Below are positions 24,708-42,176 of a stretch of DNA of 64,000 bases, one piece after another (within the stretch, counting starts at the first letter, position 1; each line of letters opens with the position of its first letter). The stretch comes from Candidatus Aminicenantes bacterium (lineage in GTDB: Bacteria > Acidobacteriota > Aminicenantia > Aminicenantales > Saccharicenantaceae), in assembly GCA_963736255.1 (NCBI GenBank), contig CAVTOI010000003.1, positions 1,684,400 through 1,748,399 on the forward strand. Direction: 5' to 3'. The notes beneath the pieces were generated by a model. It did not search any database, was not told the DNA's origin, and saw only the letters and a program-made list of their open reading frames with translations. The translations under genes were made by a program, and so were the position numbers.

Positions 24708-24853
24708 GCCAGCCTCCTTTTTGTATCCCGAATTATAACGATATCTTGATTCTACCATAATCCCTACTCTTTCTGTAGGTTATCGCCGCAGCGGTTGCGC
24801 CTGTGGCCCCTTTGTGCTATTCTTTTGGGGCTCGAAAAGACAAGGAGATAAGC

Positions 24854-25609
24854 ATGTCCGGACATTCCAAGTGGGCGTCTATCAAGCATAAAAAGGCCGC
24901 GACCGATTCCAAGCGCGGCAAGATCTTCACCCGGCTGATCCGCGAGATCAGCATGGCCGCCCGGGCCGGCGGCGGGGACCCGGACAAGAACGCCAGTCTC
25001 CGCAAGGCCATGAACGACGCCAAGGCCGCGAACATGCCCGCCGACAACGTCAAGCGGGCCATCTTGAAGGGCACCGGCCAGCTCGAAGGCGCGGCCTTCG
25101 AGGAAGTCTCCTATGAGGGATACGGACCCGGCGGCGTCGCCATCTTCCTCCAGGCCGTGACCGACAACAAGAACCGGACCGTCTCGGAGATCCGCCACAT
25201 CTTCATGAAGAACGGCGGCCAGCTGAGCGAGAAGGGGTCCGTCGCCTGGATGTTCAAGCGCATGGGCTATATCGACGTCGAAAAGGCCAAGGCGTCGGAA
25301 GACATCCTCATGGACATCGCCCTCACCGCCGGCGCCGACGACCTCAAGGATGAAGGCTCCCTGTTCGAGGTCACCACCTCGCCCGAGAAGTACGAGGCCG
25401 TCCTCGAAGCCGTCAAGAAGGCCGAGATCGAGATCGCGACCTCGGAGGTCGGGTTCCTGCCGCAGAATTACGTCAAGGTCGAGGGCAAGGAAGCCCAGCA
25501 GGTCCTCCGGCTGATCGACGAGCTCGAAGAGCACGACGACGTCAATTCCGTGTCCGGCAACTTCGACATCTCGGACGAAGAGATCGCCACCTTCTCTCAG
25601 GCCGGGTGA
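24854..25609 (+). CDS. yebC: YebC/PmpR-family DNA-binding transcriptional regulator
   Basis: MSGHSKWASIKHKKA... the canonical N-terminus; RBS AAGGAG. Confidence 0.9.
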   Translation: MSGHSKWASIKHKKAATDSKRGKIFTRLIREISMAARAGGGDPDKNASLRKAMNDAKAANMPADNVKRAILKGTGQLEGAAFEEVSYEGYGPGGVAIFLQAVTDNKNRTVSEIRHIFMKNGGQLSEKGSVAWMFKRMGYIDVEKAKASEDILMDIALTAGADDLKDEGSLFEVTTSPEKYEAVLEAVKKAEIEIATSEVGFLPQNYVKVEGKEAQQVLRLIDELEEHDDVNSVSGNFDISDEEIATFSQAG

Positions 25610-25624
25610 CCCCCGGCGTATGCC

Positions 25625-26128
25625 ATGCGGGTCCTCGGCATCGATCCCAGCCTCCAGTCCACGGGGTTCGGGATCGTCGAGGAACAGAACGGCCGCCTCC
25701 TCCCCGTCGCCTTCGGCGTCATCAAGCCGACAGCCAAGCTCCCGCTTCATCTGAAGCTCGCCGAGATCAAGAGCGAGCTCGAGGAGCTCATCCGGACCTA
25801 CAGCCCGGAGGAAGCCTCGATCGAGAATGCGTTCTACGCCCAGAACATGAAGACGGCCCTGCTTCTCGGACAGGTCCGTGGGGCGATCCTCGTCGCCGTG
25901 GCCGCGACGGGCTGCGGCCTGGCCGAGTACTCCGCCCTCGAGATCAAGAAGGCCGTCACGGGCTACGGCCAGGCGGACAAAGAGCAGGTCCTGACCATGG
26001 TCCGCTCGCTCCTCGGCCTCGACGACGACCGGATCCCGCTCGATGCCTCGGACGCCCTGGCCACCGCCATTTGCCACCTCAATTGCCGCCTGTACCAGGC
26101 CAAGATCGCAGATAAGGACCCGACATGA
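25625..26128 (+). CDS. ruvC: crossover junction endodeoxyribonuclease RuvC
   Basis: MRVLGIDPSL...; 167 aa. Confidence 0.9.
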   Translation: MRVLGIDPSLQSTGFGIVEEQNGRLLPVAFGVIKPTAKLPLHLKLAEIKSELEELIRTYSPEEASIENAFYAQNMKTALLLGQVRGAILVAVAATGCGLAEYSALEIKKAVTGYGQADKEQVLTMVRSLLGLDDDRIPLDASDALATAICHLNCRLYQAKIADKDPT

Positions 26129-26712
26129 TCGCCTACCTCAAGGGGACCCTCATCGACAAGACTCCGGGACGCGTCGTCATCGACACCGGAGGCGTCGGCT
26201 ATACCGCGGCCATCCCCATATCGTCCTTCGTCCATCTGGGCGAGCTCGGCGGGACGGTCGAGCTCTTCATCCACACCCATCTCTCCGACGACGCCCTGGC
26301 CCTCTACGGTTTCGTCTCGCACGAAGAGAAGGACATGTTCCTCAAGCTCATCGGCATCTCGGGGATCGGGCCCAAGCTGGCGCTGAACATCCTTTCGGGC
26401 ATCGCGCCGGCGGACCTCGAGGACGCGGTCCGGGCAAGCGACCTGGCCCGGATCTCTCTCGTGCCCGGGATCGGCAAGAAGACAGCCCTGCGCATCACCA
26501 TGGAGCTCCAGGACAAGCTGGAGAAGAAGGAGAAGCTCTTGGCGGGCCAAGGCACGCCCGAGAAAGAGGACCTTCTCTCGGCCCTCCAGAACATGGGCTT
26601 CCGGCGCAAGGAGGCCGAGCGGGCCGTCGACCAGACGCTCGCCGCCCTCAAGCCGGGCACGGAGTTCGAGAAGCTCCTTCGCGACAGCTTGACGCGCCTG
26701 GCTAAACTTTAG
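26125..26712 (+). CDS. ruvA: Holliday junction DNA helicase RuvA
   Basis: MIAYLKGTL... with an HhH pair; overlaps ruvC by 4 bp. Confidence 0.9.
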
Positions 26713-26894
26713 ACTCATCATCCGTTTTTGGGCCGTCCGTCTATCGGCTGCGCAACGGATATCGCTCCTTGCCCCCGCGCCCCGGAAACCTCCTTATACG
26801 GTTTCCCCCGCCTTCGGCGGGTCCCCCTTCCCTCACGGGGGCCTTGGAGCGACATCCGTCGCCGCCTCACGACGGACTTGCCCAAAAACAAGAG

Positions 26895-27962
26895 ATGAGT
26901 AGAATAACAGCGATGCCCGCCATTCTCAGCCCGATCAGGACGAAAGAGGATATCCTCTTCGAGGACAGCCTCCGTCCGAGGACATTCGACGAGTTCGTCG
27001 GCCAGGAAAAGGTCAAGGCGAACTTGCGGGTTTTCATCGAGGCGGCCAGGAAGCGCGACGAGCACCTCGACCACGTCCTCCTCTACGGGCCGCCGGGATT
27101 GGGCAAGACAAGCCTCGCCTACCTCATCGCCAAGGAGATGGGCGTCGGCATCAAGCCCACGGCGGGGCCGGTCATCGAGCGGACCGGCGACCTCTCGGCC
27201 ATCCTGACCAACATGCAGACCAAAGAGGTCCTGTTCATCGACGAGATCCACCGCCTCCAGCCCTCGATCGAGGAGATCCTCTACTCGGCCATGGAGGATT
27301 TCAGCCTGGACATCCTCATCGGCCAGGGACCGGGCGCGCGCAGCCACAAGCTCAAGATCAAAAAGTTCACTCTGATCGGGGCGACGACGCGGGCCGGGCG
27401 CATTACGGCCCCCCTGAGGGGCCGGTTCGGCATCATCCACCGCCTCGACTACTACCAGGATGAGGACCTGAAGAAAGTCATCCAGCGCTCGGCCCAGATC
27501 CTCAAGGTCAAGGTCGATGACGCCGGCGCCGGCGAGATCGCCTTGCGGTCACGGGGGACGCCGCGCGTCGCCAACCGCCTGCTGCGCCGCGTCCGCGATT
27601 ACGTTGACGTCAAGGGCGACGGCGTCATAACGGCCAAGGAGGCCCAGCGGGCCCTGGACATGATGGAGGTGGACGCCCTGGGCCTCGACGACGTCGACCG
27701 CAAGATCCTCTCGACCATCATCGAGAACTTCGGCGGCGGGCCGGTCGGGATCGGCACGATCGCCGCGGCCATCGACGAGGAGAAGGACACGATCGAGAGC
27801 ATCTACGAGCCCTTCCTCATGCGCATCGGCTTCCTCGACCGGACGATCCGGGGCCGGGTCATCACGCCGCGGGCCTACGCCCACCTAGGCTATGACCACC
27901 GCGAGCCTGGCACGCGCGGCAAAGCCAAGCCCGACGGGCAGAAGAAGCTGTTCAAGGACTGA
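26895..27962 (+). CDS. ruvB: Holliday junction DNA helicase RuvB
   Basis: Walker [12 protein letters not shown]; start taken at MSRITAM (ATG at 26895). Confidence 0.9.
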
Positions 27963-27981
27963 GAAAGCCCCCCGACCGGCC

Positions 27982-29031
27982 ATGACCTCCGGCAAACCCC
28001 TTCGCGTCTCGGATTTCGACTACGATCTCCCTCCGGAGCTCATCGCCCAACATCCCCTCCCCCATCGCGACGACTCGCGCATGATGATCGTCGACCGGAA
28101 CGCCGGCACGATCCGGCACGGCCGGTTCCGCGAGTTCGCCGATCACATGGACCCCGGCGGCCTTTTGGTCCTCAATGACACCCGCGTCCTGCCGGCCAGG
28201 CTCTGGGGCACGAGCGGCGAGGCCAAGATAGAATTTCTTTTCATCCGCGAGGCCGGCCCGGGGGTTTGGGAGGTCCTCTGCCGGCCGGCGAAAAGGGTCC
28301 ACGAAGGCGGCGCCGTCCGCTTCGCCGTCGGCGTCTCAGCCCGAGTGGCGGCAACCGGAGACGAGGGCCGTCGCATTCTCGATTTCGGAAGGATCGATGT
28401 CCGCGCCCTTCTCCACGAAGCCGGCTATGCCCCCTTGCCTCCCTACATCAAACGCGCCAGGCAAGACGAAAGCGCGAGGCCGGAGGACATCGACCGGTAC
28501 CAAACTGTCTTTGCCAGGAAGGAAGGCGCGATAGCCGCGCCGACCGCGGGCCTTCACTTCACTGAAAAAGTCCTGCGCGGACTCAAGGCCAAAGGCGTCG
28601 ACGTCCGGCGCGTCACGCTCGACGTCGGCCTGGCCACCTTCCACCCCGTCCGTGTGGATCTCGTCGAAGACCACAGGATGCTCGGAGAGACCTACGGCAT
28701 CGCGCCGTCCGCGGCCAAGGCCATCGACGCCGCGAAGTCCGAAGGCCGGCCCGTCACGGCCGTCGGCACTACAGTCGTGCGGGCGCTCGAAAGCGCCTGG
28801 TGGGAGGGCAGAATCCGCTCGGGCCGGCGATCGACGTCCCTCTTCATCCGCCCGGGATCCGAGTTCCATGTCGTCGACCGCCTGCTGACGAACTTCCACC
28901 TGCCCCGATCGACCCTGCTGATGCTCGTTTCCGCCTTCGCCGGCTACGACCTCGTCATGCGGGCCTACCGCGAGGCGGTCAAGGAGCGCTACCGCTTCTT
29001 CTCCTACGGCGACTGCATGCTTCTGATCTGA
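27982..29031 (+). CDS. queA: S-adenosylmethionine:tRNA ribosyltransferase-isomerase
   Basis: MTSGKPLRVSDFDYDLPPELIAQ... a canonical QueA start. Confidence 0.9.
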   Translation: MTSGKPLRVSDFDYDLPPELIAQHPLPHRDDSRMMIVDRNAGTIRHGRFREFADHMDPGGLLVLNDTRVLPARLWGTSGEAKIEFLFIREAGPGVWEVLCRPAKRVHEGGAVRFAVGVSARVAATGDEGRRILDFGRIDVRALLHEAGYAPLPPYIKRARQDESARPEDIDRYQTVFARKEGAIAAPTAGLHFTEKVLRGLKAKGVDVRRVTLDVGLATFHPVRVDLVEDHRMLGETYGIAPSAAKAIDAAKSEGRPVTAVGTTVVRALESAWWEGRIRSGRRSTSLFIRPGSEFHVVDRLLTNFHLPRSTLLMLVSAFAGYDLVMRAYREAVKERYRFFSYGDCMLLI

Positions 29032-29034: not shown

Positions 29035-31386
29035 CTATCTCTCGATGGCCTCGACGGCCCCCATGAGCTTCACCGTCCCTTTGATAACGGGACCGTCCCC
29101 GGCGAACCTGGCCTCGATAGCGACCGAATGTTTCCCTTTCTTCAGGAGCGGCAGGCCCGTACCGATGGATACGTCCTCGATCTTCCGGCCCTTCTCGTCG
29201 TAAATGATCATACGATCCGATCCGTCCCAGACCAGGGATTGCCCCTTGTTCAGCGTCGCAGGGACACTGATCTTGAAGAAGCGATCGACCTCGATCTCGA
29301 TCCTTTGGGCTTGAGAATCTGCCCCTCCCGTCAGCAGGAGATGGAGGTGCAGAGGCTGAGGGCCGGAGGCGTTCTCGAAGGGCCATTCCGATTGGGCCGG
29401 CTGTCCCGGCTGCAGGACTTTTCTGGTGTGCTCGAAGCGGAATTGCTCGTAACTCTGCAGGGTCCACCGGTTCTTTTCATGCCTCTCAAGGTGGAAGTCC
29501 TTCTCGGGATCTTTCAGCCGGGTCCTCTGTTCGTCGCTGAAGATGCCCAGCCGCTTGGCCTCTTCCCAAGTCCTGATGGAGGCGATGATGGCGTCCGTGT
29601 CGGGGTTCTTCTCGAAGGCCTCGGGATCGGCGACGAAAGCGTAGCCGGCCCGATAGCCCGCGGCCCGGGCCAGCATCCATTCGATGTCCTCGAGCCGTGT
29701 GTCGGGCGTCATGAGGAACCAGCCGAGCATGTTGGGCAGGTAGTTGCGCTCGAGGAACGGCTGGTGCTTGAACCGCTGCTCGGACTGGCTCTCCCGGAAG
29801 CTCGCGTACCACGGCTCGCCCCAGTTGATATAGCTGTTGGCATGCCAATAGAAGTGACCGATGTTGCTCGAGCCGTTGACGACCAGGTGATCGACCTGTG
29901 ACAGGAAGGCCTCGACGAAATGATCGTGGCCGTAGTCTCCACGGCCCAGGTAGCAGGTTCCCTCGTGGCCGTCGAAGTCCATGTGGGAGACCCCGGTCTC
30001 GTTGAAGAGTGCGGCCAGGTTCCGGATGAGCTCCTCCTGCATGGGCCAATCGGGGAACAAGGTCTTGTACGGGTGATCCATGAGCTTCTTGGCCGGGTCG
30101 CCCTTGGCGTGGGCCGCCGCGGCTGTCCCGAAAGCCCCCCGGACGCAGTTCGTCAGGGCCCAGGGCCCGCTCCCGGTCACGTCCTGATAACGGATGATCT
30201 CGGCGCCGATAAGCAGGCTGCTGAGGGTCGATCCCTGCCGGAAATAATCTTCGCGGTCCACGACGATCTCGGTCGCCGCGGCGTCGATGTCCTTCTGAAG
30301 CGTGGCGATACCCGCGGCCATCAGCCCCTTGTTGGCCGTGGTCGTCACGAAGGGGTCGTTCGTGGTGATGAAATTCGTCAGCGTATGGACCCCTATCCGG
30401 ATGCCCTTGGCCCGGGCCTTGTCCACGCATAGCTTCATCCCGGCCCTGCCGTTGGGGAACAGGTCCTCCATGAGGTCGAAGTGGCCCCAGGTCTTGAACG
30501 GTCCGCTATGGTAGAGCGAATAAAATCCCAGGCGCCGGGCATATTCCAGCATCTCGTCGACATTCTTTTCGCCGAAATTGGCGATGAGATAGGGCCGGCC
30601 CGTCGCGCCGGAGGTCTTGATCCATTCACCGTCGATCATGGGGTGCGGCAGGCCTTCGGCCAGCTCGATCCTGCCGATCAAGGGCAGCGCGTCGGCCGGA
30701 GCGGAGCCGAAAACGGCCAGGGCGCTCCCCTCCAGGCTGAATCCAGGCAAGGCCTTGACCGGCACTTTCTTGTGCTGCTGCCAGACCGTCATGACCCGGT
30801 CCCTGGCCTGGTTGACGCAGAAGGCCTGGAGGCTCGAGCCGGACCCCTCCTTGGTGGCCGTTGTCATTCCCCCCGTCGTGCCTTCCTCGTTGACCAGCCT
30901 GCCGCCGCACGTTTTCGAATTCAGGGTCTGGATGCCGATGGCGAAATCGGCGTTCCGGACGACTCCGACCACCTCTCCGACGGTCTCGTCGATCGTCGTC
31001 AAGATCGGGCCCCACAAGACCGCGTCGATCTTCTCGGGGTAGGCCACGTCGATTAGCTCAAAACGCAGGTATTCGGGCTTCTGGGCGGCCCGGACCGTGA
31101 GCTCGATCCCGCCATCAAAAGCGAAGGTCAACAGGCCTTTTGTGGCTTTGAACGCCGTCGGCAGGATCTCGGCGCCACCGATGCTCTTGACCCGGACGAG
31201 ATAACCGGGATGGCCATCGGGCGCGTAGTTCCGCTGGCCCTTCAGATCGGCCAGCTTGACGATCTCTCCGCGGCCGTTGATCTCCATGGCGAAACCCGGC
31301 GTCGTGTAGACATGCTGGGCCTGCGCGGCAGCGCTCAGGCCAAGGCCGCAGATGATGGCGATGAGCTGTTTTCTTCTCACGTTCAT
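29035..31386 (-). CDS. large secreted protein of unknown function, possibly a glycoside-hydrolase-like TIM barrel
   Basis: Signal peptide MNVRRKQLIAIICGLGLSAAAQA; 783 aa; it sits in a glycan-degradation neighbourhood. Confidence 0.65.
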   Translation of the reverse strand: MNVRRKQLIAIICGLGLSAAAQAQHVYTTPGFAMEINGRGEIVKLADLKGQRNYAPDGHPGYLVRVKSIGGAEILPTAFKATKGLLTFAFDGGIELTVRAAQKPEYLRFELIDVAYPEKIDAVLWGPILTTIDETVGEVVGVVRNADFAIGIQTLNSKTCGGRLVNEEGTTGGMTTATKEGSGSSLQAFCVNQARDRVMTVWQQHKKVPVKALPGFSLEGSALAVFGSAPADALPLIGRIELAEGLPHPMIDGEWIKTSGATGRPYLIANFGEKNVDEMLEYARRLGFYSLYHSGPFKTWGHFDLMEDLFPNGRAGMKLCVDKARAKGIRIGVHTLTNFITTNDPFVTTTANKGLMAAGIATLQKDIDAAATEIVVDREDYFRQGSTLSSLLIGAEIIRYQDVTGSGPWALTNCVRGAFGTAAAAHAKGDPAKKLMDHPYKTLFPDWPMQEELIRNLAALFNETGVSHMDFDGHEGTCYLGRGDYGHDHFVEAFLSQVDHLVVNGSSNIGHFYWHANSYINWGEPWYASFRESQSEQRFKHQPFLERNYLPNMLGWFLMTPDTRLEDIEWMLARAAGYRAGYAFVADPEAFEKNPDTDAIIASIRTWEEAKRLGIFSDEQRTRLKDPEKDFHLERHEKNRWTLQSYEQFRFEHTRKVLQPGQPAQSEWPFENASGPQPLHLHLLLTGGADSQAQRIEIEVDRFFKISVPATLNKGQSLVWDGSDRMIIYDEKGRKIEDVSIGTGLPLLKKGKHSVAIEARFAGDGPVIKGTVKLMGAVEAIER

Positions 31387-31531
31387 GTTCCTCGGACTCC
31401 CGGCCTGACCGCTCGTTTTGCGGCCTTCGGCCTTTCGTTCCGTCCGTGATGTTATCATAATCGCCCCGGCTGTCCGGACCCCTTTTTTGACAAGGATTTT
31501 CGTTCTGAATTATCATAGGCCCCGATCGATC

Positions 31532-32719
31532 ATGGATATCAACGCCAGAATCGCCAAGGCCGTCGAAGATCGCCGGACCGAGATCCTCGAGCTGAGCCGC
31601 AAGATCCACGCCGACCCCGAGCTTGCCTTCGAAGAGGTACGGACATCGCGCCTGCTCCAAGCGGTCCTTCTGGCCGAGGGCTTCGACCTCTCCCCCGCCT
31701 CCGAAGGGCTGCCGACCTCGTTCCGGGCCGTATTCGGTCCCTCTCCAAACGGTCCCCGGGTGACGTTCACGGCCGAGATGGACGCTCTCCCTGGCCTGGG
31801 GCACGCCTGCGGCCACAACATCATCGGCACGGCCGGGACCTATGCCGCCATCGTCCTGAAATCCGTCCTGGGTTGCGATATCCCCGGGACGATCGAGGTC
31901 GTCGGGACTCCGGCCGAGGAGCGCGGCAGCGGCAAGGTCCGCATGATCCAGGACGGGATCTTCTCCCGATCGGACGTCGTTCTCCAGATCCACCCCCACT
32001 CGATAGACACCGTCATCGGCCAGGCGCTGGCCCGGCGCTCGCTCATCGTCGAGTTCTTCGGCCAGAAGGCCCACGCCGCGGCCGCGCCCCTCCAGGGCCG
32101 GAACGCCCTCGACGCCCTGGTCCTCTTCTATCATTCGGCCGCCCTGCCGCGGACAAAATTCCCGGCGGGAACCCTCTTTCACGGCATCATCGAATCGGGC
32201 GGCGAGGCGCCGAACATCATCCCGGATTACGCCCGCGGCCGGTTCTCCCTTCGCTCCGACACCATGTCCAAGCTCGGGAGCCTCGTCGCCGAGGTCAGGC
32301 GCCTCGCCGAAAGGGCCGCTGAAGAAACCGGATGTCGAGCCAAGATCAGCGAGCCCGGGCCCGGGGTAACGACCTTCCGCCGCAACCGTGTCCTCGAAGA
32401 GATCTTCGCCCCGCTGTTCGTGGAACGGGGCCGGTCCGATCCGGCAAAAGTCCGGGAGACCTACGGCTCGACGGATCTGGCCAATGTCTCCTGGGTCGTC
32501 CCGACGATCGAGCCGATGATCAAGGCCAGCGACTTCCCCATCCACACCGAGGGCTTCGCCCGCGATGCCATAGCGGCCGGCGGCGAGAAGGCCCTCCTCG
32601 ACGGCGTCTACTTCCTGGCCGCCGCGGCGGCCCGCATCCTGACCGGGCCCCCCCTCCTCGAGCGCGTCCGCGCGGATTTCCGGGCCAAGGTAGAGGACGC
32701 CCCGGAAGGGACCGCCTGA
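31532..32719 (+). CDS. M20-family amidohydrolase/peptidase (M20D, aminoacylase or hippurate-hydrolase-like)
   Basis: MDINARIAKAV...; metal ligands HACGHN...E..G; a TTGACA promoter-like box at 31487. Confidence 0.85.
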   Translation: MDINARIAKAVEDRRTEILELSRKIHADPELAFEEVRTSRLLQAVLLAEGFDLSPASEGLPTSFRAVFGPSPNGPRVTFTAEMDALPGLGHACGHNIIGTAGTYAAIVLKSVLGCDIPGTIEVVGTPAEERGSGKVRMIQDGIFSRSDVVLQIHPHSIDTVIGQALARRSLIVEFFGQKAHAAAAPLQGRNALDALVLFYHSAALPRTKFPAGTLFHGIIESGGEAPNIIPDYARGRFSLRSDTMSKLGSLVAEVRRLAERAAEETGCRAKISEPGPGVTTFRRNRVLEEIFAPLFVERGRSDPAKVRETYGSTDLANVSWVVPTIEPMIKASDFPIHTEGFARDAIAAGGEKALLDGVYFLAAAAARILTGPPLLERVRADFRAKVEDAPEGTA

Positions 32720-32732
32720 GGCCTCCGTCCCC

Positions 32733-33650
32733 ATGAGAAGCCTCCTCGATTTCGGCAGGAAGTCCGGCGCGGTCACCGTCGTGATCACGGATTCGGGCCT
32801 CGGCGGCCTCCTCGTCTGCGCCGACCTCGACCGCCGGCTGCGGGAGACCGCCGGGGAAGGCAGCGTCCGCCTCATCTACGTCAACGCCTGGCCTGACGCC
32901 CACCATGGCTACAACGACCTGCCCGATCTCGCCGCACGCGCCGCGGTCTTCGACGGGGCGCTGGCCGCGATGACGGCCTTTCATCCCGACTTCGTCCTCA
33001 TCGCCTGCAACACGCTGTCGGTGATCTACGAGGCCACGGCCTTCAGCCGGGCCCCCGGCGTCCCCGTGACAGGCATTCTGGAAGCCGGCACCGAGCTTTT
33101 CTTCGAGGCCCTGGCCCGGGACCCCGATGGCGTCCTGGCACTGTTCGGGACACGGACGACCATCGGTTCGGGCGAGCACGTCCGGAGGCTGGCCGAGAGG
33201 GGTATCGAGCCGAAGCGGATCGTCGCCGAGCCGTGCCACGGCCTGGCCGCGGTCATCGACAAGGACCCCGATTCTCCGCTGATCCCGGGCCTCGTCGATG
33301 AGTGCGTCCTTCGGGCCGCGCCGAGGCTCCCGACCGCGGCGCTACTCTATGCCGGGCTCGCCTGCACCCATTACGCCTACGTCGCCGAGGCATTCCGGAC
33401 GGCGCTTTGCCGGCACACCGGAGCGGAGATCGAGATCCTCGACCCCGGCCGGCGTCTTGTCGAAGTCCTCATGAGTGGGATCGGCCATCGGCGGACTGTC
33501 AGCGGAGACAGGGACATCGCCGTCGAGGTCGTCTCCAAAGTCGATCTGCCGGAGGCCCAACGGCAGGCCGTGGCGCGGCGCATCGAACCCGTCTCGGCCA
33601 CGACGGCCCGCGCCTTGCTCGAATACCGCCGGATACACGATCTTTTCTGA
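32733..33650 (+). CDS. Asp/Glu racemase-family protein (MurI-like glutamate racemase paralogue)
   Basis: DSGLGGL N-motif with paired catalytic Cys motifs ACNTLS and ACTHY. Confidence 0.75.
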   Translation: MRSLLDFGRKSGAVTVVITDSGLGGLLVCADLDRRLRETAGEGSVRLIYVNAWPDAHHGYNDLPDLAARAAVFDGALAAMTAFHPDFVLIACNTLSVIYEATAFSRAPGVPVTGILEAGTELFFEALARDPDGVLALFGTRTTIGSGEHVRRLAERGIEPKRIVAEPCHGLAAVIDKDPDSPLIPGLVDECVLRAAPRLPTAALLYAGLACTHYAYVAEAFRTALCRHTGAEIEILDPGRRLVEVLMSGIGHRRTVSGDRDIAVEVVSKVDLPEAQRQAVARRIEPVSATTARALLEYRRIHDLF

Positions 33651-33662
33651 GGGAGAACCGCC

Positions 33663-34646
33663 ATGAAGATACTGCTCCTGACCGGCCCCGGCGGCGACGC
33701 CCAGGGCTGGGGCGACATGAAGGTCACCGAATCCATGCGCGAGGCCACGGAATCCCTCGGCCACCCGACCCGGATCGCCCAAGTCGCCGACGAAGCGGAG
33801 TTATTCCGCCTCGTCGACAAGCCCGATTTCGACATCGTCTGGAGCGCCCTCTACCACATCACGACGAACGAAGCGTTCATCGGACGGAACGCCGCCGGGA
33901 CCTGGGTCGCCGACGTTCTCGACGAAAGACAGATCCCCTACATCGGCTCGAACAGCCGGACGATGCGGGCCATGATCGACAAATTCGAGACCCACGAGAT
34001 CCTGGCCGCGGGGGGGGTCGCCGTCCCGGCGCACGTCCTCCTCCATTCGGGCGACGACGTTTCGATGGTCACCTATCCCGCCTTCGTCAAGCCGATCTGC
34101 GAATCGCGGTCGGTCGGCATCTCCGACGAAAGCGTCGTGCACAACGAGGAGGAGCTGAGGCGGCGCGTCGCCTTCATCGAGAAGGAGTTCGACGAGCCGG
34201 CCCTGGTCGAGGAGTTCCTCCCGGGCGACGAATACACGGCCCTCATCGTCGGGAACGGCAAGACCCGAGAGTGCCTGCCCGGCCTGGTCACGGTCGAGGA
34301 CACGCACTACAGGAATTATCGCATCCTGCGGAGCGACCTCAGGGGCGTCGGCCTGACGAGGATCAGCCTGGCCGGGGCGAGAACGGATGAAGCCCGGATT
34401 CTCGGCGACGCGGCGGCCGAGGCCATGGGCTGCCTCGACCACGTCCGCATCGACATGCGCGTCGACCGGACCGGGAAGCTTCGCATCATCGAGGTCAACG
34501 GCATCCCCGGGCTCAAGCCCCACAAGAGCTGGGCGCCGCAGATCTACACGCTCTACCACGGCTCGCCGCTCGGCGAGGGTGAGGATTACCGGCAACTCAT
34601 CGGCGCGATCGTCGATTCGGCCGGCCGGCGCTACGGGTTCGCCTAG
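33663..34646 (+). CDS. ATP-grasp ligase, D-Ala-D-Ala-ligase-like
   Basis: Ddl-like N-domain; ATP-grasp core EEFLPGDEYTALIVG ... IEVNGIPG. Confidence 0.75.
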   Translation: MKILLLTGPGGDAQGWGDMKVTESMREATESLGHPTRIAQVADEAELFRLVDKPDFDIVWSALYHITTNEAFIGRNAAGTWVADVLDERQIPYIGSNSRTMRAMIDKFETHEILAAGGVAVPAHVLLHSGDDVSMVTYPAFVKPICESRSVGISDESVVHNEEELRRRVAFIEKEFDEPALVEEFLPGDEYTALIVGNGKTRECLPGLVTVEDTHYRNYRILRSDLRGVGLTRISLAGARTDEARILGDAAAEAMGCLDHVRIDMRVDRTGKLRIIEVNGIPGLKPHKSWAPQIYTLYHGSPLGEGEDYRQLIGAIVDSAGRRYGFA

Positions 34647-34650
34647 GCCG

Positions 34651-35823
34651 TCAGTTAGCCTTCGGCGTGAGCGGCTTCGTGAGCCACTCGTCGATGAGGC
34701 GGGTCCAGGCCGGCCGCGCGGGGGCCGGTTTCTCGGACATGAACCGCGTCAGGGCGTCGCGCCAGAGCTCGGCGTGCTGCAGGGTCGTGATGCGGTTGCG
34801 GAACATGGCCGCGCCCTTCCGGGGCTCCGAATCCATCTTTTCGAGGATACCGAGGACCTCCTTCTTGAAACCCTCGGGGCCGTAATAGGCAAGATAGGCC
34901 TGCCAGGACTCGGCGACCCCGCGCGCGGTCTTGAGCGGACCGGAAACGCGGCGGAGCGCCTCGCGGAACGAGCGCTCCTCTCCCCTGTCGAGCGGACGGA
35001 GCCCGTTCTCGGCGATGCGATAGGGATGGATCCTGTAAGAGGCCAGACAGCCGGCGCGCACGTCGAGCGAGAGGCAGAACCCGGTCCGGCGGTACTGGAG
35101 CTCGGGCGGCTGGAAGAAGGCGAAGTTCCCCAGGCTGTAGGCGATGAGCCGGCCGCGGCGCATTTCCAGGCCCTGAGGAACATGCGGGTGATGGCCGACG
35201 ACGCAGTCGGCACCGGCGTCCGAGAGGGCCCGGAAGGCCGCGACGACATAAGGCGGCGGGAACGGGACGTACTCGAGACCCGCATGCCCTATGGCGATGA
35301 CGAAGTCGCCCCGTTTCTTGGCCTTGCGGATGAGGTGGGCCAGCCGATCGATCTCCCAGCCGCAGACGCCCGGCCCCCCCGCGGACGCCGTGAGGTCCTC
35401 GCCTTCGCCGAAATTGACGATGGTGAGGCGCGCACCCTTGACGGTCAGTCTCAGCGGGGCTGTGGCCTCCTCGAACGTCATCCCCGCACCGATCGTTCTT
35501 ATCCCATTCCGGCGCAGGACCTCGAGCGTCTCCCGGAATCCGGCCAGGCCATAATCGAAGACATGGTTGTTGGCGAGCGTCGCCACCTCGAACGGGACCG
35601 CAGCGAGAGCCGCGGCGTGGGCCGGGAGCCCCTTGAAGACGGCGCCGCTCTTCCAGACGGGCTTGCGGGCCGCCGTCAGGGCGCATTCGCAGTTGACGAT
35701 CCTGAGGTCGGCGGCGCGAAGGATCGGGAGCACGTCGCCGTAGACAGACTCCGGTTCCCGGGATATGACGGGTTCGAGGGCCCGGATAGGCGCCCAATCC
35801 GAAGCGACAAGGATCCTGGTCAT
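34651..35823 (-). CDS. CapA-family metallophosphatase (poly-gamma-glutamate biosynthesis accessory protein family)
   Basis: MTRILVASDWAPIR... calcineurin-like motifs GNHVFDYG...GHHPH. Confidence 0.8.
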   Translation of the reverse strand: MTRILVASDWAPIRALEPVISREPESVYGDVLPILRAADLRIVNCECALTAARKPVWKSGAVFKGLPAHAAALAAVPFEVATLANNHVFDYGLAGFRETLEVLRRNGIRTIGAGMTFEEATAPLRLTVKGARLTIVNFGEGEDLTASAGGPGVCGWEIDRLAHLIRKAKKRGDFVIAIGHAGLEYVPFPPPYVVAAFRALSDAGADCVVGHHPHVPQGLEMRRGRLIAYSLGNFAFFQPPELQYRRTGFCLSLDVRAGCLASYRIHPYRIAENGLRPLDRGEERSFREALRRVSGPLKTARGVAESWQAYLAYYGPEGFKKEVLGILEKMDSEPRKGAAMFRNRITTLQHAELWRDALTRFMSEKPAPARPAWTRLIDEWLTKPLTPKAN

Positions 35824-35824: not shown

Positions 35825-37126
35825 CTATTTCATGAGCTCCGCAATTCGCTTGGCATGATCGCCGATGACGGCCAGGGTCGAGGCATCGGCGTCATAGACC
35901 GAGTACCAGCCGGCGGGTTCGTGCGGCGGGTCCCCGACCCACGTCATACCCGGCCTGGCTTCGCCTGCCCAGGCCCAAAAGTTGTCCCCCATCGCCGGGC
36001 CGCCTGACGCGATCGAGTCCATGACGAGCTTGTAGAGGGCCGCATAATAGAGATCCTTATTCGTCGTCGGCGAGGCGGGGTCGAGGTTGTTCTTGCGGGG
36101 CAGCCACTCGCGGGCCAGGCCGAACTCCTCGAGGACGAGGGGTTTCCCCATACCCTTCGCTTCCCTGGCGTGCTCCAGGAAATAGGCGATGGCCAGCGGC
36201 TCGGCGGCCTTGTAGGTCGCGGGGCGCTTCGGATCGTACCAGCCCCAGTTCTGGGGCCAGATGTGGATGGTGACGTAATCGATGCCGGGAGAGCTATGGG
36301 TCCGGACGAAATCCTGCGTCGGCTCGCCGGGCGGCTTGCCCTCCGAGCCCGTCGTCACCATGTGGTTCGGGTCGAGGGACTTGATGTAGGCGGCCGTGTC
36401 GTCGATCCAGCTCTGGGGGTAACGCCGCGGCTCGTTCCCAAGCTCCCATGAGAAGACGGCCGGATCGTCGCGGTATTTGACGCGGGTATAAGGATTGGTC
36501 CGGCCGGTGATCATGGCGATGTGGTCCCGGAACCAGTCCTGGCACTCCGGGTAGGTATAGAACTTCGCCGCATAGGTGATGAATTTCTCGTAATCCCCGG
36601 GATACGGGATGGGCGTCTTCTCGCGCCAGGAGACGTACTGGGCCATGCCGCCCGACCACTGCCAGAAGTTGTTAAGGACCATGACCGCGCGCATCCCTCG
36701 CTTGCCCATCTCGGCCAGCAGGAAGTCGAGGCCGTCGAGGACGCTGCCGTCGTATTCTCCCGGGGACGTCATCAGGGCCGGGACCGTCCGGTAAGGCTCG
36801 GTATTTGGGCCCTCGGAGGAAGCCATGACGCGGAGATTGGTCAGGCCGAGGTCGCGCATACGGTCGAGCTCCCGCAGGAGCCGGGCCCTGTCGCCGCTCT
36901 CGCCGTCGACGCCGAGGTTCATCCCCTGCCAGAAGTTGGCCCCGACGAAGTAATAGGGTTTTCCGGCCAGCACGAATCGGCCGTCCTTGACAGTCACGAA
37001 CGAGGCGGCGGCCGGAGCGTCCGTGCCCGGCTCCTGGCCCTTGGCCGCGGGACCCTGGTCCCGGTCGCCCCGGCAGCCCCAGGCGGCCAGGCTGAACAGA
37101 AGAACGAGGAGGACTGTCTTGCGCAT
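35825..37126 (-). CDS. glycoside hydrolase family 5 lipoprotein (mannanase-like)
   Basis: Lipobox AAWGC; GH5 catalytic motifs WELGNEPR and LEEFG. Confidence 0.8.
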   Translation of the reverse strand: MRKTVLLVLLFSLAAWGCRGDRDQGPAAKGQEPGTDAPAAASFVTVKDGRFVLAGKPYYFVGANFWQGMNLGVDGESGDRARLLRELDRMRDLGLTNLRVMASSEGPNTEPYRTVPALMTSPGEYDGSVLDGLDFLLAEMGKRGMRAVMVLNNFWQWSGGMAQYVSWREKTPIPYPGDYEKFITYAAKFYTYPECQDWFRDHIAMITGRTNPYTRVKYRDDPAVFSWELGNEPRRYPQSWIDDTAAYIKSLDPNHMVTTGSEGKPPGEPTQDFVRTHSSPGIDYVTIHIWPQNWGWYDPKRPATYKAAEPLAIAYFLEHAREAKGMGKPLVLEEFGLAREWLPRKNNLDPASPTTNKDLYYAALYKLVMDSIASGGPAMGDNFWAWAGEARPGMTWVGDPPHEPAGWYSVYDADASTLAVIGDHAKRIAELMK

Positions 37127-37268: not shown

Positions 37269-39678
37269 GTGAATAAAGCCGGAATAGCCCGCGTATCGCT
37301 CTTGGTCGTGATCTTAATGGTTGTCTTGGCTGCGGCCGGTTGCTCCACCGCCGCGTCAACGGGACGCAAGACGACCGGCCCGGAGGTCGTCCCGGCCCCG
37401 GTACGCCTCGAAACCCGCCCGGGGACCTTCGCTCTCGGGCCGTCGACGCGGATCGTCATCCTCGAAAGCCAGGTCGATCTCCTGCCCGTGGCCTCCGCCC
37501 TCAAAGACATGCTCCGTCGTCCGACCGGATACGACTTCGGCATCGATGTCTCGACCGAGCTCGCCGGAGAGATACCGATCGCGGCGGGCTCCATCATCCT
37601 CCACCTCGAGGACCTGGGAGACCGTCTGGGAGACGAAGGCTACCTCCTGGACATTGAGACGGACAAGATCCGGATCCGGGGCGCCGCCCCCGCCGGGATC
37701 TTCTACGGCGTCCAGACCCTCCGTCAGCTCCTGCCCGCCGCGATCGAGGGCGCGGCGGGGGCCGCGGCGACGCCGGCCTGGACGGTCCCGTGTGTCAGCG
37801 TCGAGGACAAGCCGCGGTTCTCCTGGCGGGGAGGGATGCTCGACTGCTCGAGGCATTTCTTCCCCAAGGAATTCGTCAAGCGCTGGATCGACATCCTGGC
37901 CATGCACAAGCTGAACACCTTCCACTGGCATCTGACCGACGACCAGGGTTGGCGCATCGAGATCAAGAAATATCCGAAGCTGACCGAGATCGGCGCCTGG
38001 CGCGTCGACCGTGAGGACCAGCACTGGAACGCCCGGGAGCCTCAGCAGCCGGGCGAGGCCGCGACCTACGGCGGCTTCTACACCCAGGACGACATCCGCG
38101 AGATCGTCGCCTACGCCGCGGCCCGCTACGTGACCGTCGTGCCCGAGATCGAGATGCCCGGTCATGCCAAGGCGGCCCTGGCGGCCTATCCGGAATTCTC
38201 GTGCACTGGCGGACCCTTCACCGTCACGCCGGGCGGCTACTGGCCCATCACGGACATCTTCTGCCCCGGCAACGAGGGCACGTTCGCGTTCCTGGAAAAC
38301 GTACTGGCCGAGGTCGGTCGAGCTTTTCCCGGGCTCATTCATCCACATCGGCGGCGACGAGGCCAACAAGACCGAGTGGAAGCGCTGCCCCCAGTGCCAG
38401 GCCCGGATCAAGGCCGAGGGGCTCAAGGACGAAAGCGAGCTCCAGAGCTATTTCGTCCGGCGGATCGAGAAGATCCTCAACGCCAAGGGCCGGCGTCTCA
38501 TCGGCTGGGACGAGATCCTCGAGGGCGGCTTGGCCCCCCAGGCGACGGTCATGTCCTGGCGCGGCACTGAAGGCGGCATCGCCGCGGCCAAGGCCGGGCA
38601 TGACGTCGTCATGTCGCCGACCTCCCACTGCTACATCGATTACTATCAAGGGAACCCGGCCTATGAGCCCCCGGCCATCGGCGGCTACCTCCCCCTCAGC
38701 AAGGTTTATTCCTTGGAGCCCGTACCCGATGTCCTGACCGAGGCGGAAGCGGCCCACATCCTGGGCGCTCAGGTCAATCTCTGGACCGAGTATGTGCCGG
38801 ACGGGAAGCACGCCGAGTACATGGCCCTGCCCCGCCTGGCCGCCCTGTCCGAGGCGGTCTGGTCGCCGAAGAGTGCGACGGGACTGGAACAGATTCTCAG
38901 CCGGCGTCCAAGGGCTCCTCGCCCGCTATCAGGCCGCCGGCCTGAACTTCGCCCGGAGCGCCTATCTCGTCGGCATCCGAGCCGCCGTGTCGCCCGGCTC
39001 GAAACAGGCCACCATGACGCTCGAGACCGAGATCCCGGGGCTCGACATCCGCTATACGACGAACGGCACCGATCCCGGTCCCTCTTCGAAGCGCTATAAG
39101 AAGCCCATTGTGCTCAGGAAGACGACCGAGATCCGGGCGGCGGCCTTCGACGGGACCGAGCGTCTGAGCCCGGCCGTCGTGACCGAGCGCTTCGTCGTCC
39201 ATGCCGCCTCTGGCCGCACGCCGGTGCTGACAGCGCCGTTCAGCCCGGACCGCGCGGGCGGCGGCGACACCGCCCTCACGGACGGCCTCCTCGGATCGCG
39301 GAATTCCGAGGACGGACGCTGGCAGGGCTTCGAGGGCGTCGACCTCGACGCCGTCGATCGATCTCGGCGCGCCTCGGTCCGTGCGCACGATCGCCGTGAG
39401 GTGCCTGCAGAACATCAACTCATGGATCTTCCTGCCGGCGTCGGTCGAATTCGCCGTCTCTTCCGACGGCCTGACCTACGAGACCGTGGCCGAGGTCAGG
39501 AACGACGTCTCGCCTCGCCTGGCCGAAGCGGTCATCAAGGGATTCGAGGCCGCGCTTCGAGGCGCGCCAGGCCCGATACGTCCGGGTCCGGGCCAAGACC
39601 ATCGGCGCCGTCCCCGACTGGCATTACGGGGCGGGCGGCAAGTCCTGGCTCTTCGCCGACGAGATCGTCGTCGAATAG
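37269..39678 (+). pseudogene. GH20 beta-N-acetylhexosaminidase lipoprotein gene broken by at least four +1 frameshifts
   Basis: Frame 0 runs to ...ENVLAEV at ~38318 (extra G in GAGGTCGGTCGAG). It continues in frame 1 (ELFPGSFIHIGGDE...AVWSPK), frame 2 (DWNRFSAGVQGLL...) and frame 0 (RTIAVRCLQNINSW...), with a further shift at ~39555 before a discoidin-like end ...YVRVRAKTIGAVPDWHYGAGGKSWLFADEIVVE*. Confidence 0.75.
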
Positions 39679-42116
39679 ACGATCTCCTGGCCGGGCCGTG
39701 TCTCGAGCTCGATCATCCCCTGCCGGGGAAGAGCGCTCGACGGGTCCGCGCCGGTGACCTTGACCTCGCGCGCGGCGAAGGGATCGGCCAGCCGCAGCCG
39801 CCCACCCGCCTTCGAACGGACCCGGAGCTCGACGATCCGTCCCCCGCTCCAGTCGGCGTCGAGCTCGAAGCCGCCCCGGGCGCATAGCCCCTTGAACCGG
39901 CCCTCGGCCCAGGCCGCGGGCAGCGCCGGGAGGACCTGGATGAAGCCCCGATGGGACTGGACGAGCATCTCGGCGATGCCGGCCGTCCCGCCGAAGTTCC
40001 CGTCGATCTGGAAGGGAGGGTGGGTGTCGAAGAGGTTCTTGAGGGTCGATCTCCGGAGGAGCGTCAGCAGGTTCCGGTGGGCCGTTTCGCCCTCGAGCAG
40101 CCGCGCATAGAAGCTGACGATCCAGGCCCGGCTCCAGCCGGTCTGGCCGCCGCCATGCTCGAGCCGGCGGGCGATCGTCCGGCGGGCCGCTTCGAAGAGC
40201 TCGGGCGTTTCGGGCGTTATCTGGGCCAGGGGGTAAAGGGCCAGCATATGGGACATGTGGCGATGCCCGGGCTCGGCCTCGTCGTAGTCCCTTGATCCAT
40301 TCACGGAGATTGCCGTGCTTGCCGATCTGGAGGGGCGGCAGCTGCTTTTCGAGCTCTTTCAGCCGGGCGGAGAATTCCGCGTCGACACCGAGGATCCCGG
40401 CGGCGCGAATGCAATTCTCGAACAGGGCCCGGGCGATCTCGACGTCGATCGTCGCGGCGTAGGTCAGCGATTCCGGCTTTGCCCGTCTTCGGGTCGATGT
40501 AGGCGTTCTCCGGCGAATGGGAGGGCGCGGTGACCAGCCAGCCGTCGGGGGACGGGACGAGGAAGTCGGCGACGAATTCGGCCGAGCCCTTCATGATCGG
40601 GTAGGCGACGTTCGCGGAGAAAGGCCGTGTCGCCGGTGAACTCGTAGTGGTCCCAGAGAGGGAAGGTCATCCACGGTCCGGCCATGGGCGAGACGCCCCA
40701 GACGCCGTCGGCGACGCCGGTCCGTCCGAAGGGGTCGGTCAGATGGTGGAGGGTCCAGCCGCGGGTGCCGTAGGTCTTGCGGGCCGTCACGGCGCCGGGG
40801 ACGGTCAGGCGGCCGACGAAGTCCGCCAGGGGTCCGACGGTCTCCGGGAGATTAGTGACTTCGGCCGGCCAATAGTTCATCTGCAGATTGATGTTGGTGT
40901 GGAAGTCGGAATTCCAGGCCGCCTCGAAGTCCTGGTTCCAGATCCCCTGGAGATTGGCAGGAAGCGACGGCCGGCCGGCGCGACGAGCCCATGAGCAGGT
41001 AGCGGCCGTACTGGAAGTAAAGGGCCGCCAGGCCCGGGTCCCCGCCGCCGGCCTTGACCCTCTCGAGCCGTTCGTCGGTCGGCAGGCCGGAGGCGTCCGG
41101 CGAGCCGCCGAGGTCGAGGGAGACGCGATCGTAGAGCGCCCGGTGTTCGGCGATGTGGCGGTCCCGGAGCTCCCGAAAGGAGAAGCGCCGGGCCCGGGCC
41201 AGGGTCTCGGCGGTCTTCGCGACCGGGTCGGCGCCGGCGTCGAAGTCGAGCCGGGCCGGGTCATAGTCCGTCGCCGCCGCCAGGAGGATGGTCACCTCCC
41301 GCGCGCCCTTGACACGGACGGCGTCCCCGTCCGCCTTAACGCGTCCCCCTTTGGTGCGCACGCTGAGCGAAGCCGCGAATCGCATGTGCTCGCCCCCGGG
41401 CCCGCTGAGAGGATCCGCCTTGTCGGCGATGCGGCCGGAAAGGACGATCCCGTTGCGGGAGATCGTCCGGACCGTGGCGTCCCTGGCCCTGGTCAGGCGA
41501 ATGGTCCCCGTGATCCCGGCGCCGCGACCGGCCGCTATCCCGACGGCCAGGACATCGTCCGTCGCCGAAGAGAAGACCTGCCGCTCGATCACGACGCCAT
41601 CCGGCGTCTCGCAGACGACCGAGGCGATGCCGTCCCTGAGATCGAGGTCCCGCTCGTACTCGGCTCCCGCCCGGACGTCCTCGAGATCGATGAGAAGGTC
41701 GGCCAGCGGCTGGTAGGACCTTATCCGTGGCGGCGTTCCGAGCAATGACTTTTCGGCCAAGGCCGAGGCCCGGGCGTGATCGCCCTCGAAAAGGGCCTGC
41801 CGGATGAGGGGTAAGGCCTCGAGGGCCGCCGGGTTGTTGTTGTCGACGGGCGAGCCGGCCCAGACCGTCTCTTCGTTGAGCTGGAGCTTCTCGTGTCCGG
41901 AGTACCCGAAGACCATGGCCCCGAGCCGGCCGTTCCCGACGGGAAGGGCTTCGTCCCAGTCGGCGGCCGGCTGGCGGTACCAGAGCCGGTCCGGACCGGC
42001 GATCCGGCTCATCCCCGTGGTGCCCGTCGGATCGGGCGAGCAGGCGCCGAGGCAAAGGAGCAGCGCGGCGAGGGCAAAACAGGGAGTAGCGAGAAGGCGG
42101 CAGGGTTTGGCGTTCA
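39624..42116 (-). pseudogene. GH95 alpha-L-fucosidase-like lipoprotein gene broken by at least three frameshifts
   Basis: The N-terminal GH95 domain (LWYRQPAADWDEALPVGNGRLGAMVFG), the middle (SLPANLQGIWNQDFEAAWNSDFHTNINLQMNYWPAE) and the C-terminus (DYDEAEPGHRHMSHMLALYP...) lie in three different frames, ORFs 40852..42507, 40464..41264, 40301..40594 and 39624..40304. Confidence 0.75.
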
Positions 42117-42176
42117 TGGCCTCGTTATAACGCCGGCATCCAGGGGTGTCAATCAAGGCGGAGGGCGACAATATTA

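Follow-up and report, generated by a model that had tools for sequence, protein, structure and literature searches.

In Rac/Asl of Enterococcus faecium and in VanT/VanC, the gene of a racemase lies beside that of an ATP-grasp ligase that uses its D-product. In the hmrA/ldmS operon of Staphylococcus, the gene of an M20D carboxydipeptidase has that of an ATP-grasp L-Asp-L-Met ligase downstream of it (PMC9486568). Here we describe a locus that recalls both arrangements, found in a 64,000-nucleotide stretch of DNA (the window) from an uncultured Candidatus Aminicenantes bacterium of sediment (assembly GCA_963736255.1, contig CAVTOI010000003.1, positions 1,684,400 to 1,748,399 of the forward strand). 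Its genes for an M20D amidohydrolase, a racemase resembling the glutamate racemase MurI and an ATP-grasp ligase resembling the D-Ala-D-Ala ligase Ddl constitute one operon, and a gene of the CapA/PGA_cap family, itself lying behind a glycoside hydrolase family 5 (GH5) gene, runs convergently to it. Our preferred, if tentative, reading is that the locus encodes a cytoplasmic anabolic module that makes and trims a peptide containing a D-amino acid, probably D-glutamate.

For the CapA-like protein, the closest solved relative is MslH, in which H88/D91 and H295/D11 are the catalytic dyads and E44, N87, H259 and H261 the metal ligands (PMC10406935). Its discoverers put CapA forward as the peptide epimerase of poly-gamma-glutamate (PGA) synthesis, whose membrane-bound synthetase has resisted biochemistry (PMC8179263). 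The locus described here pairs a soluble member of this family with a racemase and a ligase that are likewise cytoplasmic.

A compact operon and a convergent CapA-like gene

The operon lies on the forward strand. Its first gene (31532..32719) encodes the M20D amidohydrolase, a 395-aa protein of the HmrA/PM20D2-like carboxydipeptidase family; the second (32733..33650) encodes a 305-aa, MurI-like, cofactor-independent two-Cys racemase; and the third (33663..34646) encodes a 327-aa, Ddl-like ATP-grasp amide ligase. The gaps between them measure 13 nt (M20D to racemase) and 12 nt (racemase to ligase). On the reverse strand, 34651..35823 encodes the soluble CapA/PGA_cap-family protein of 390 aa, which has an MslH-like metal-dependent fold, and the stop codon of this gene is 4 nt from that of the ligase gene. 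A first-pass annotation of this DNA had described three tightly packed co-directional genes with a convergent CapA gene directly behind the ligase gene, and this layout agrees with ours. Its four family assignments were also right: the proteins match TIGR01891, PF07687 and PF01546 (M20D), PF01177 (racemase), PF07478 (ligase) and PF09587 (CapA-like).

All four genes are intact, and their GC contents at third codon positions (0.83-0.91) match those of other real genes in the 65% GC window. The open reading frame (ORF) of the M20D gene spans 31418-32719; translation almost certainly begins with the ATG at 31532, which yields the 395-aa protein, because this gives the same length as the gene calls in two related loci (L084 and L085) and agrees with the alignment to HmrA. 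Signal peptides and transmembrane or hydrophobic segments were found in none of the four proteins. Homologues that are 83-93% identical carry the source names Candidatus Aminicenantes or Acidobacteriota.

The CapA-like, racemase and ligase genes stay adjacent across phyla

For the comparison of gene order, we collected 80 loci (designated by L numbers) from a genome-collection scan with the family alignment and six from close relatives; all of these were searched by tblastn with the window proteins, and their ORFs were clustered. Synteny counts cover the 50 loci with a ligase at least 43% identical. The racemase gene is present in 38 of the 50, and in 37 it directly precedes the ligase gene, as a rule by no more than tens of bases; in the 38th, L018, it belongs to the same operon without adjoining the ligase gene. 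The full trio of CapA-like, racemase and ligase genes occurs in 35 loci. Two loci (L024 and L037) have racemase and ligase only, five have the ligase alone (L030, L031, L040, L044 and L001, the last with a racemase remnant), and the remaining ones are cut by contig ends.

Carriers of the trio belong to Aminicenantes, Vicinamibacterales, Terriglobia, Holophagaceae, Desulfobacterota, Lentisphaerota and Leptospirales. In the first three of these groups, the CapA-like gene runs convergently. By contrast, in Desulfobacterota (Desulfotignum, Desulfospira, Desulfobacula, Desulfosarcinaceae and Desulfomonilia), Holophagaceae and Lentisphaerota the genes form one co-directional operon in the order CapA-like, racemase, ligase, and the Leptospirales locus L018 is co-directional with the ligase gene ahead of the block of CapA-like and racemase genes. 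Because the adjacency outlasts inversion and spans phyla, gene order provides strong evidence that the three genes are functionally coupled and that the CapA-like gene is a core member rather than a bystander. The conserved neighbourhood expected of a dedicated module is therefore borne out for racemase, ligase and CapA-like genes, in 35 loci across several phyla; for the M20 gene it is not, as this gene occurs in Aminicenantes only.

Each enzyme comes from a known superfamily, and racemase-ligase pairs are already a known kind. Full-text literature searches found no description of the trio, however, and since it is conserved in anaerobes, most of them uncultured, from at least four phyla, it would represent an unrecognised piece of D-amino-acid metabolism.

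In about 12 loci from Desulfobacterota and Leptospirales, two more genes stand ahead of the CapA-like one: that of a class IV aminotransferase and that of an alanine racemase, which clears the TIGR00492 cutoff of 168 with 387 bits. An alanine racemase together with a D-amino-acid aminotransferase makes up the classical indirect route to D-Glu.

Individual loci show further variation. The richest cluster is that of L018 (2349-11990), which encodes, in this order, a D-aminoacylase-like protein, a secreted SxxK serine hydrolase, the ligase, an FGase-like protein, a class IV aminotransferase, an alanine racemase, the CapA-like protein and the racemase; the SxxK hydrolase is assigned to the beta-lactamase/DD-peptidase family from its sequence only, and the racemase is apparently split into two ORFs. 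In L001 (6844-8004; from a 2.4-Mb Aminicenantes contig of GCA_041320535.1), only the last ~116 codons of the racemase gene are left, abutting a truncated class II aminoacyl-tRNA synthetase gene behind ribH and nusB. L002 and L003, from two other assemblies with a ligase identical to that of L001, retain the racemase; the loss in L001 reflects either a true deletion or a chimeric assembly. In L085 (465-3718), the M20D gene directly follows a co-directional gene for a GntR/FCD regulator, and further out there are a gene for a proline-racemase-family protein and, divergently oriented, one for an aminotransferase; these neighbours hint at local D-amino-acid metabolism and possible regulation.

A ligase with predicted Ddl-like chemistry and, apparently, other substrates

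The ligase matches PF07478 with 69 bits (cutoff 24) and remains far below the curated models of the enzymes that it resembles. The best Ddl model, NF002378, reaches 92.7 bits where 243 are required, and TIGR01205 reaches 79 where 245.65 are; the Van ligase models, with cutoffs of 495-775, give 37-58 bits. In a PDB search at E <= 1e-3, every chain returned was a VanA or a Ddl, with E values from 6e-15. When 1.84 billion representative proteins were searched exhaustively, only 54 reached E <= 1e-30. Full-length members of the family score 170-420 bits against the window ligase and 45-77 bits against E. coli DdlB, and the scores then fall sharply to ~100 bits at unrelated tandem ATP-grasp proteins. 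This bit-score comparison shows no grouping with Ddl, in line with the first-pass proposal, and on these scores the ligase forms a small, distinct and patchily distributed family of its own.

We examined the substrate site by adding DdlB (identical in sequence to PDB 2dln) to a 40-member family alignment. The DdlB residues that serve ATP and Mg2+ binding and catalysis (K97, K144, E180, E187, R255, D257, E270 and N272) correspond to K107, K143, E183, E190, R262, D264, E277 and N279 of the ligase, and these are invariant among the 40 members. By contrast, the D-Ala triad of DdlB (E15/S150/Y216) is replaced by Q14 (in all 40), R149 (in 39 of the 40) and I/V221. The family also has signatures of its own, namely R149, an N-terminal GPxGxxQGWGD motif and an 8-residue insertion after NGIPG. 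Because the ATP, Mg2+ and catalytic residues are kept and the D-Ala triad is replaced, the ligase chemistry is predicted to be Ddl-like with different substrates. The practically invariant Arg sits in the first substrate site, which suggests an acidic substrate there. An AlphaFold2 (AF2) model of the ligase has low confidence (predicted local distance difference test score, pLDDT, 61.7; shallow alignment) and was used for fold class only, not for pocket analysis; its top 50 Foldseek matches in the PDB are all Ddl or VanA.

Thus, the ligase shares with Ddl and VanA the full-length ATP-grasp fold, PF07478, the catalytic Arg/Asp/Glu/Asn residues and the ATP/Mg residues, from which amide ligation through an acyl-phosphate would be expected. 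It differs from Ddl in its low identity (~20-25%), the Q/R/I triad, the GPxGxxQGWGD motif, the 8-residue insertion and the lack of a division and cell wall (dcw) gene context. Unlike that of Ddl, moreover, its gene is always paired with the gene of a MurI-like racemase, save in the ligase-only loci listed above, and usually with a CapA-like gene.

Candidate fusions were rejected. Longer relatives of the ligase (P0155 and others) could have been Rosetta-stone fusions, but they are fusions of the tandem ATP-grasp or GNAT type and contain neither a racemase nor a CapA domain. P0097 (556 aa), a candidate racemase fusion, is a read-through extension, and a 648-aa CapA-racemase ORF in L033 is a frame artefact.

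The kinship with VanA raises the question of peptidoglycan-precursor remodelling, comparable to that of VanC/VanT/VanXY or Asl/Rac of Enterococcus faecium. Here the racemase would give an unusual D-amino acid, the ligase would join it to D-Ala or to a UDP-N-acetylmuramic acid (UDP-MurNAc)-peptide, and the hydrolase would remove the normal precursor. VanA and Ddl are indeed the closest solved relatives of the ligase, an alanine racemase is encoded inside the Desulfobacterota operons, and racemase, ligase and dipeptidase together are the architecture of VanC-type systems; the gene logic of the window is that of Rac/Asl and VanT/VanC. Moreover, HmrA was first described as a methicillin-resistance factor (PMC9486568). 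Against this stand the Van ligase models, which are far under their cutoffs, and the enzyme families themselves: the ligase and racemase families are other than those of Rac/Asl and VanT/VanC, the racemase being a PF01177 protein and not of the pyridoxal phosphate (PLP)-dependent VanT type, and the hydrolase is an M20D protein. Neither an M15 VanX, nor VanRS/two-component genes, nor mur/fts neighbours were found in the window or among the called genes of relatives. CapA-like proteins, here the third partner, have no place in Van-type systems, and glycopeptide resistance would be of no benefit to the carriers, which belong to diderm lineages. We therefore consider remodelling improbable.

A MurI-like racemase below the MurI cutoffs

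The racemase matches PF01177 with 43 bits (cutoff 31), and its solved relatives are glutamate racemases only. The MurI models, by contrast, are far from their cutoffs (TIGR00067, 30.5 bits against 146.65; NF002035, 23.9 against 328). Across 30 homologues, the invariant residues are D20-S21-G22-x-G24-G25, A91-C92-N93-T94, T140, T143 and C211-T212-H213. Both catalytic Cys motifs recognised in the first pass, ACNT and CTH, are thus invariant in all 30, as is an additional Cys168. Overall, the protein resembles MurI in PF01177, the DSGxGG, ACNT, GTxxT and CTH motifs and both catalytic Cys residues. It departs from MurI in a C-terminus that is ~40 residues longer, in the invariant Cys168, in an HGYN loop and in its sub-cutoff TIGR00067 score.

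The thresholds bear directly on the simplest explanation of the two genes, a plain housekeeping glutamate racemase and D-Ala-D-Ala ligase. MurI and Ddl are the nearest proteins in Pfam and in the PDB, and the alanine racemase co-encoded in Desulfobacterota is another cell-wall D-amino-acid enzyme. Yet both proteins fall far below the curated equivalog cutoffs (30.5 against 146.65 bits for the racemase, 92.7 against 243 for the ligase), which agrees with the first-pass view that they stand apart from housekeeping MurI and Ddl. The Ddl triad E15/S150/Y216 has become Q/R/I, and a family with 54 representatives at E <= 1e-30 among 1.84 billion is small and patchy. Furthermore, neither the window nor the examined relatives offer a dcw context or mur/fts neighbours, and L001 apparently has a racemase remnant only. 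A housekeeping role is therefore scarcely credible.

A soluble CapA-like protein with an MslH-like fold

The CapA-like protein matches PF09587 with 201 bits (cutoff 27), and its only solved relatives are the MslH entries. Among 35 homologues, D9, N44, E46, N85-N86-H87, D90, H180, E184, H211, H212 and H214 are invariant. In the alignment with MslH, D9, E46, N86, H87, D90, H180 and H214 correspond to D11, E44, N87, H88, D91, H259 and H295, so that seven of the eight catalytic or metal residues of MslH are kept; H261 alone differs, being replaced by G182 with E184 nearby. The AF2 model (pLDDT 78.9, predicted TM-score 0.86) has MslH as its best solved fold (Foldseek 8gq9 and 8itg; E 2e-15, query-normalised TM-score 0.6, ~434 aligned columns), and this match covers the whole length of the protein, including the C-terminal helical domain. 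The next matches, to YmdB-like phosphatases and 5'-nucleotidases, have E values of 4e-9 or weaker. The 19-residue Kyte-Doolittle maximum is 1.39 and the N-terminus is not hydrophobic, which indicates that there is no membrane anchor.

Accordingly, the protein shares with MslH the PF09587 domain, the best whole-length structural match, both His/Asp dyads and solubility. It differs from MslH in its sequence (~19-20% identity), in the replacement of H261 by the CapA-typical HxGxEY motif and in its gene context: no lasso-peptide genes were found near the CapA-like gene. With the MslH model NF038314, it reaches 67.8 bits, far from the cutoff of 700.

PgsA of PGA synthesis is membrane-anchored. A classical PGA capsule synthesis locus would be suggested by the 201-bit match to PF09587, by source annotations that read 'poly-gamma-glutamate synthesis protein', by the adjoining glutamate-racemase-like gene and by the gamma-glutamyl-bond hydrolases of relatives. 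However, CapB/PgsB (Mur-ligase family) and CapC/PgsC were not found among the called genes of L001-L003 and L084-L086 or in the conserved neighbour clusters, all components are cytoplasmic, and there is no conserved exporter. Because neither a CapB/CapC gene nor a membrane anchor was found, classical PGA synthesis is unsupported, and we regard it as very improbable. Where CapA/PgsA has CapB and CapC as partners, the window protein has the MurI-like racemase and the Ddl-like ligase.

The CapA-like gene has upstream of it a gene for a GH5 mannosidase-like lipoprotein (35825-37126, reverse strand; lipobox LAAWGC), the end of which is separated from the CapA-like start codon by 1 nt. In L084 (8167-9468), the GH5 and CapA-like genes overlap by 4 nt; the pairing is absent outside Aminicenantes. 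Because of the 1-nt spacing in the window and the overlap in L084, the cytoplasmic CapA-like protein of Aminicenantes appears to be co-translated with an exported glycosidase.

Unrelated amidohydrolases occupy one position

The M20D protein matches TIGR01891 with 179.6 bits (cutoff 153.75), and PF07687 and PF01546 also score above their cutoffs; among solved structures, HmrA (E 1e-66) comes closest to it, followed by the Xaa-Arg dipeptidase PM20D2 (E 4e-54). The first-pass annotation had counted the M20 peptidase among the members of the module. As a conserved member it does not stand, as its gene is confined to Aminicenantes loci (the window, L004, L084 and L085), and other lineages use three unrelated amidohydrolase families instead. 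An FGase-like gene (PF05013, 55 bits) lies directly behind the ligase gene in 12 loci, a peptidase C26/gamma-glutamyl hydrolase-type gene (PF07722, 159 bits) overlaps the ligase or racemase gene in three Lentisphaerota loci, and an Amidohydro_3, D-aminoacylase-like gene is present in two (L036 and L018). The FGase-like, C26 and Amidohydro_3 proteins all score under every NCBIfam cutoff. Where a hydrolase is part of the operon, it is tightly coupled to it by overlaps or short gaps.

The presence of four unrelated amidohydrolase families at one operon position is non-orthologous displacement, which argues that amide hydrolysis is a real, though dispensable, step. The families themselves can guide the search for the substrate. 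Enzymes of the FGase family act on N-acyl-glutamate and C26 enzymes on gamma-glutamyl amides, and both substrates point to glutamate.

For the combination of a hydrolase with a ligase, hmrA/ldmS offers what we see as a direct precedent. In both loci, an HmrA-type M20D gene is upstream of an ATP-grasp ligase gene in one operon, and both present the same paradox of a ligase accompanied by a hydrolase. The window differs in that the racemase gene is inserted between the two, in the attached CapA-like gene and in the dispensability of M20D across the family. Its ligase, moreover, is Ddl-like and not detectably related to LdmS (PDB search, E <= 1e-3). PM20D2, the other close relative of the M20D protein, proofreads an ATP-grasp ligase.

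Proposed function of the module

From these elements we infer an anabolic direction. The racemase would supply a D-amino acid, most probably D-glutamate, and the ligase would activate a carboxylate as an acyl-phosphate and form an amide bond, giving a small peptide that contains this D-residue. The CapA-like enzyme would then act on the ligase product, where, in the manner of MslH, it may plausibly epimerise the residue whose C-terminal carboxylate is free, and the exchangeable amidohydrolase would cleave the amide again, for turnover, recycling or proofreading.

The choice of D-glutamate as the most likely amino acid follows from four observations taken together, namely the substrates of the FGase and C26 families, the possible indirect route to D-Glu in relatives, the MurI-like racemase and the PGA-linked CapA family. 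A di- or oligopeptide containing gamma-D-Glu would be a plausible substrate for all four types of hydrolase. The first-pass annotation had suggested a dedicated module for a D-amino-acid-containing peptide or polymer. The accessory genes of relatives are suggestive of D-amino-acid metabolism and of glutamate; a polymer of the PGA type is unsupported, as neither CapB/CapC genes nor an anchor were found.

Several points weigh against this reading. In about half of the loci, the operon lacks a hydrolase gene. In the racemase, the substrate-holding PYG loop of MurI aligns to HGYN, although the GTxxT motif is kept, so glutamate as its substrate is not assured. For the class IV aminotransferase, the NCBIfam scan could not separate the D-amino-acid from the branched-chain type. 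The conserved residues of the CapA-like protein are general to the whole PGA_cap and metallophosphoesterase superfamily and so do not single out an epimerase: they are consistent with an active enzyme but do not prove epimerase activity. Finally, no family member has a known product or activity, and the GntR/FCD regulator in L085, the many hydrolases, the alanine racemase and the aminotransferase fit a catabolic or salvage pathway equally well.

Such a pathway would salvage or catabolise peptides with D-amino acids, for example murein stem peptides from wall turnover or dead cells. The amidohydrolase would cut gamma-D-Glu or N-acyl-D-Glu bonds, the CapA-like protein would epimerise the C-terminal D-residue of a dipeptide (compare E. 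coli YcjG), the racemases and the aminotransferase would convert the freed D-Glu and D-Ala, and the ATP-grasp enzyme would re-ligate salvaged D-amino acids. The E. coli MpaA/YcjG/PepD pathway, in which YcjG is the L-Ala-D/L-Glu epimerase, is a step-by-step analogue. Indeed, each of the four hydrolase families could cut a bond of L-Ala-gamma-D-Glu-meso-diaminopimelate (mDAP), and L018 adds a D-aminoacylase-like gene and a secreted SxxK hydrolase that reads as DD-peptidase-like. The alanine racemase and class IV aminotransferase genes within operons, the GntR/FCD regulator directly upstream in L085 and the window's neighbouring genes for a GH20 hexosaminidase and other glycosidases point in the same direction. 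The anchor of the cluster, however, is an ATP-consuming ligase tightly coupled to a racemase, which is atypical for catabolism; about half of the loci hold the trio without any hydrolase; there is no conserved transporter; and the glycosidase neighbours are specific to Aminicenantes. We take salvage seriously while holding it to be doubtful. If it were the correct explanation, the locus would bear on how sediment bacteria recycle dead cell material rich in D-amino acids.

A more specific scheme can also be drawn, which we regard as rather unlikely as it stands. In it, the CapA-like protein would be a C-terminal epimerase of small peptides that works in series with the ligase, and the trio would form, along with the exchangeable, stereospecific amidohydrolase, an ATP-driven 'ligate, epimerise, hydrolyse' route. 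Such a route would need no membrane complex; it would set or reverse the configuration of an amino acid, or else yield a D,D-dipeptide or an oligo-gamma-D-glutamate. By its logic it would parallel the LysX/LysK carrier-protein, N-succinyl-amino-acid racemase and DgcN/DgcA pathways with unrelated enzymes, and it would for the first time open the function of the CapA/PgsA family to direct biochemical study. This function is a long-standing gap. Because a soluble CapA-like protein sits here with the enzymes that are likely to supply its substrate, in a minimal and wholly cytoplasmic operon, the epimerase proposal becomes testable in vitro.

A conserved promoter in place of a direct repeat

Directly upstream of the M20D start codon, a sigma-70-type promoter match (TTGACA-18-TATCAT; 31487..31516, forward strand) agrees with the scanned pattern at 11 of 12 positions, and the M20D 5' untranslated region inferred from it is only ~9 nt long. 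In an alignment of the window with L004, L084 and L085, both promoter boxes and the 18-nt spacer are near-invariant. The genes that lie upstream in these relatives differ: L004 and L084 have queA there, L085 has the GntR regulator gene. The sequence ahead of the -35 box is not alignable among the window and these three loci.

The first-pass annotation had reported a direct repeat in this region, which does not survive inspection. One copy, TTATCATAATCGCCCCG (31452..31468, forward strand), is the sole match to the 17-mer as it was written; a second copy of TTATCATAATCGCCCCG was not found even at up to two mismatches. The other site, TTATCATAGGCCCCG (31510..31524, forward strand), begins at 31510 instead of 31512 and contains the -10 hexamer TATCAT of the operon promoter (31511-31516). 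In register, the two copies share only TTATCATA, after which a 1-nt indel follows. Because the promoter boxes and spacer are near-invariant, whereas the upstream sequence, including the first copy, is not alignable, we read the region as a conserved promoter with a notably conserved spacer, and not as a meaningful direct repeat. The spacer between the boxes (31493-31510) reads AGGATTTTCGTTCTGAAT, is near-invariant in the four genomes and may contain an operator.

The first copy lies by a divergent gene that is specific to the window. This gene (29035-31386, reverse strand) encodes a secreted 783-aa protein with the signal peptide MNVRRKQLIAIICGLGLSAAAQA and no convincing Pfam or NCBIfam match, and stands between queA and the M20D gene. 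In L004 and L084, queA directly abuts the M20D promoter, which marks the 783-aa gene as a lineage-specific insertion.

Neighbouring genes

No tRNA genes or Rfam matches were found within the window, and the terminator scan showed no enrichment (2 sites against 2.4 expected). Beyond the GH5 gene, frameshifts cluster in a stretch with two further glycosidase genes; the M20D, racemase, ligase and CapA-like genes are unbroken. The GH20 beta-N-acetylhexosaminidase gene (37269-39757, forward strand) is split over at least two, probably three frames (37269-38570, 38164-39099 and 38792-39757). In L086, the homologue is a single unbroken gene (797 aa), relative to which the first break in the window is a 1-nt insertion near 38316. 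The window gene is either a pseudogene or an assembly error. The GH95 gene (alpha-L-fucosidase-type; 39624-42507, reverse strand) is spread over at least three or four frames (39624-40304, 40301-40594, 40464-41264 and 40852-42507), and its homologue in L086 is a single called gene of at least 864 aa.

On the other side, the locus is preceded by a conserved block of housekeeping genes, yebC-ruvC-ruvA-ruvB-queA (24803-29031, forward strand), that is syntenic with L084. The window ORFs of ruvB (397 aa) and queA (379 aa) extend ~30-50 codons beyond the 349-aa calls in L084, so the true starts lie further downstream. Two metagenome-assembled genomes labelled 'uncultured Eubacteriales' (L004 and L047) carry an Aminicenantes-type locus with 84% identity and identical synteny, and in these the label or the binning is probably wrong.

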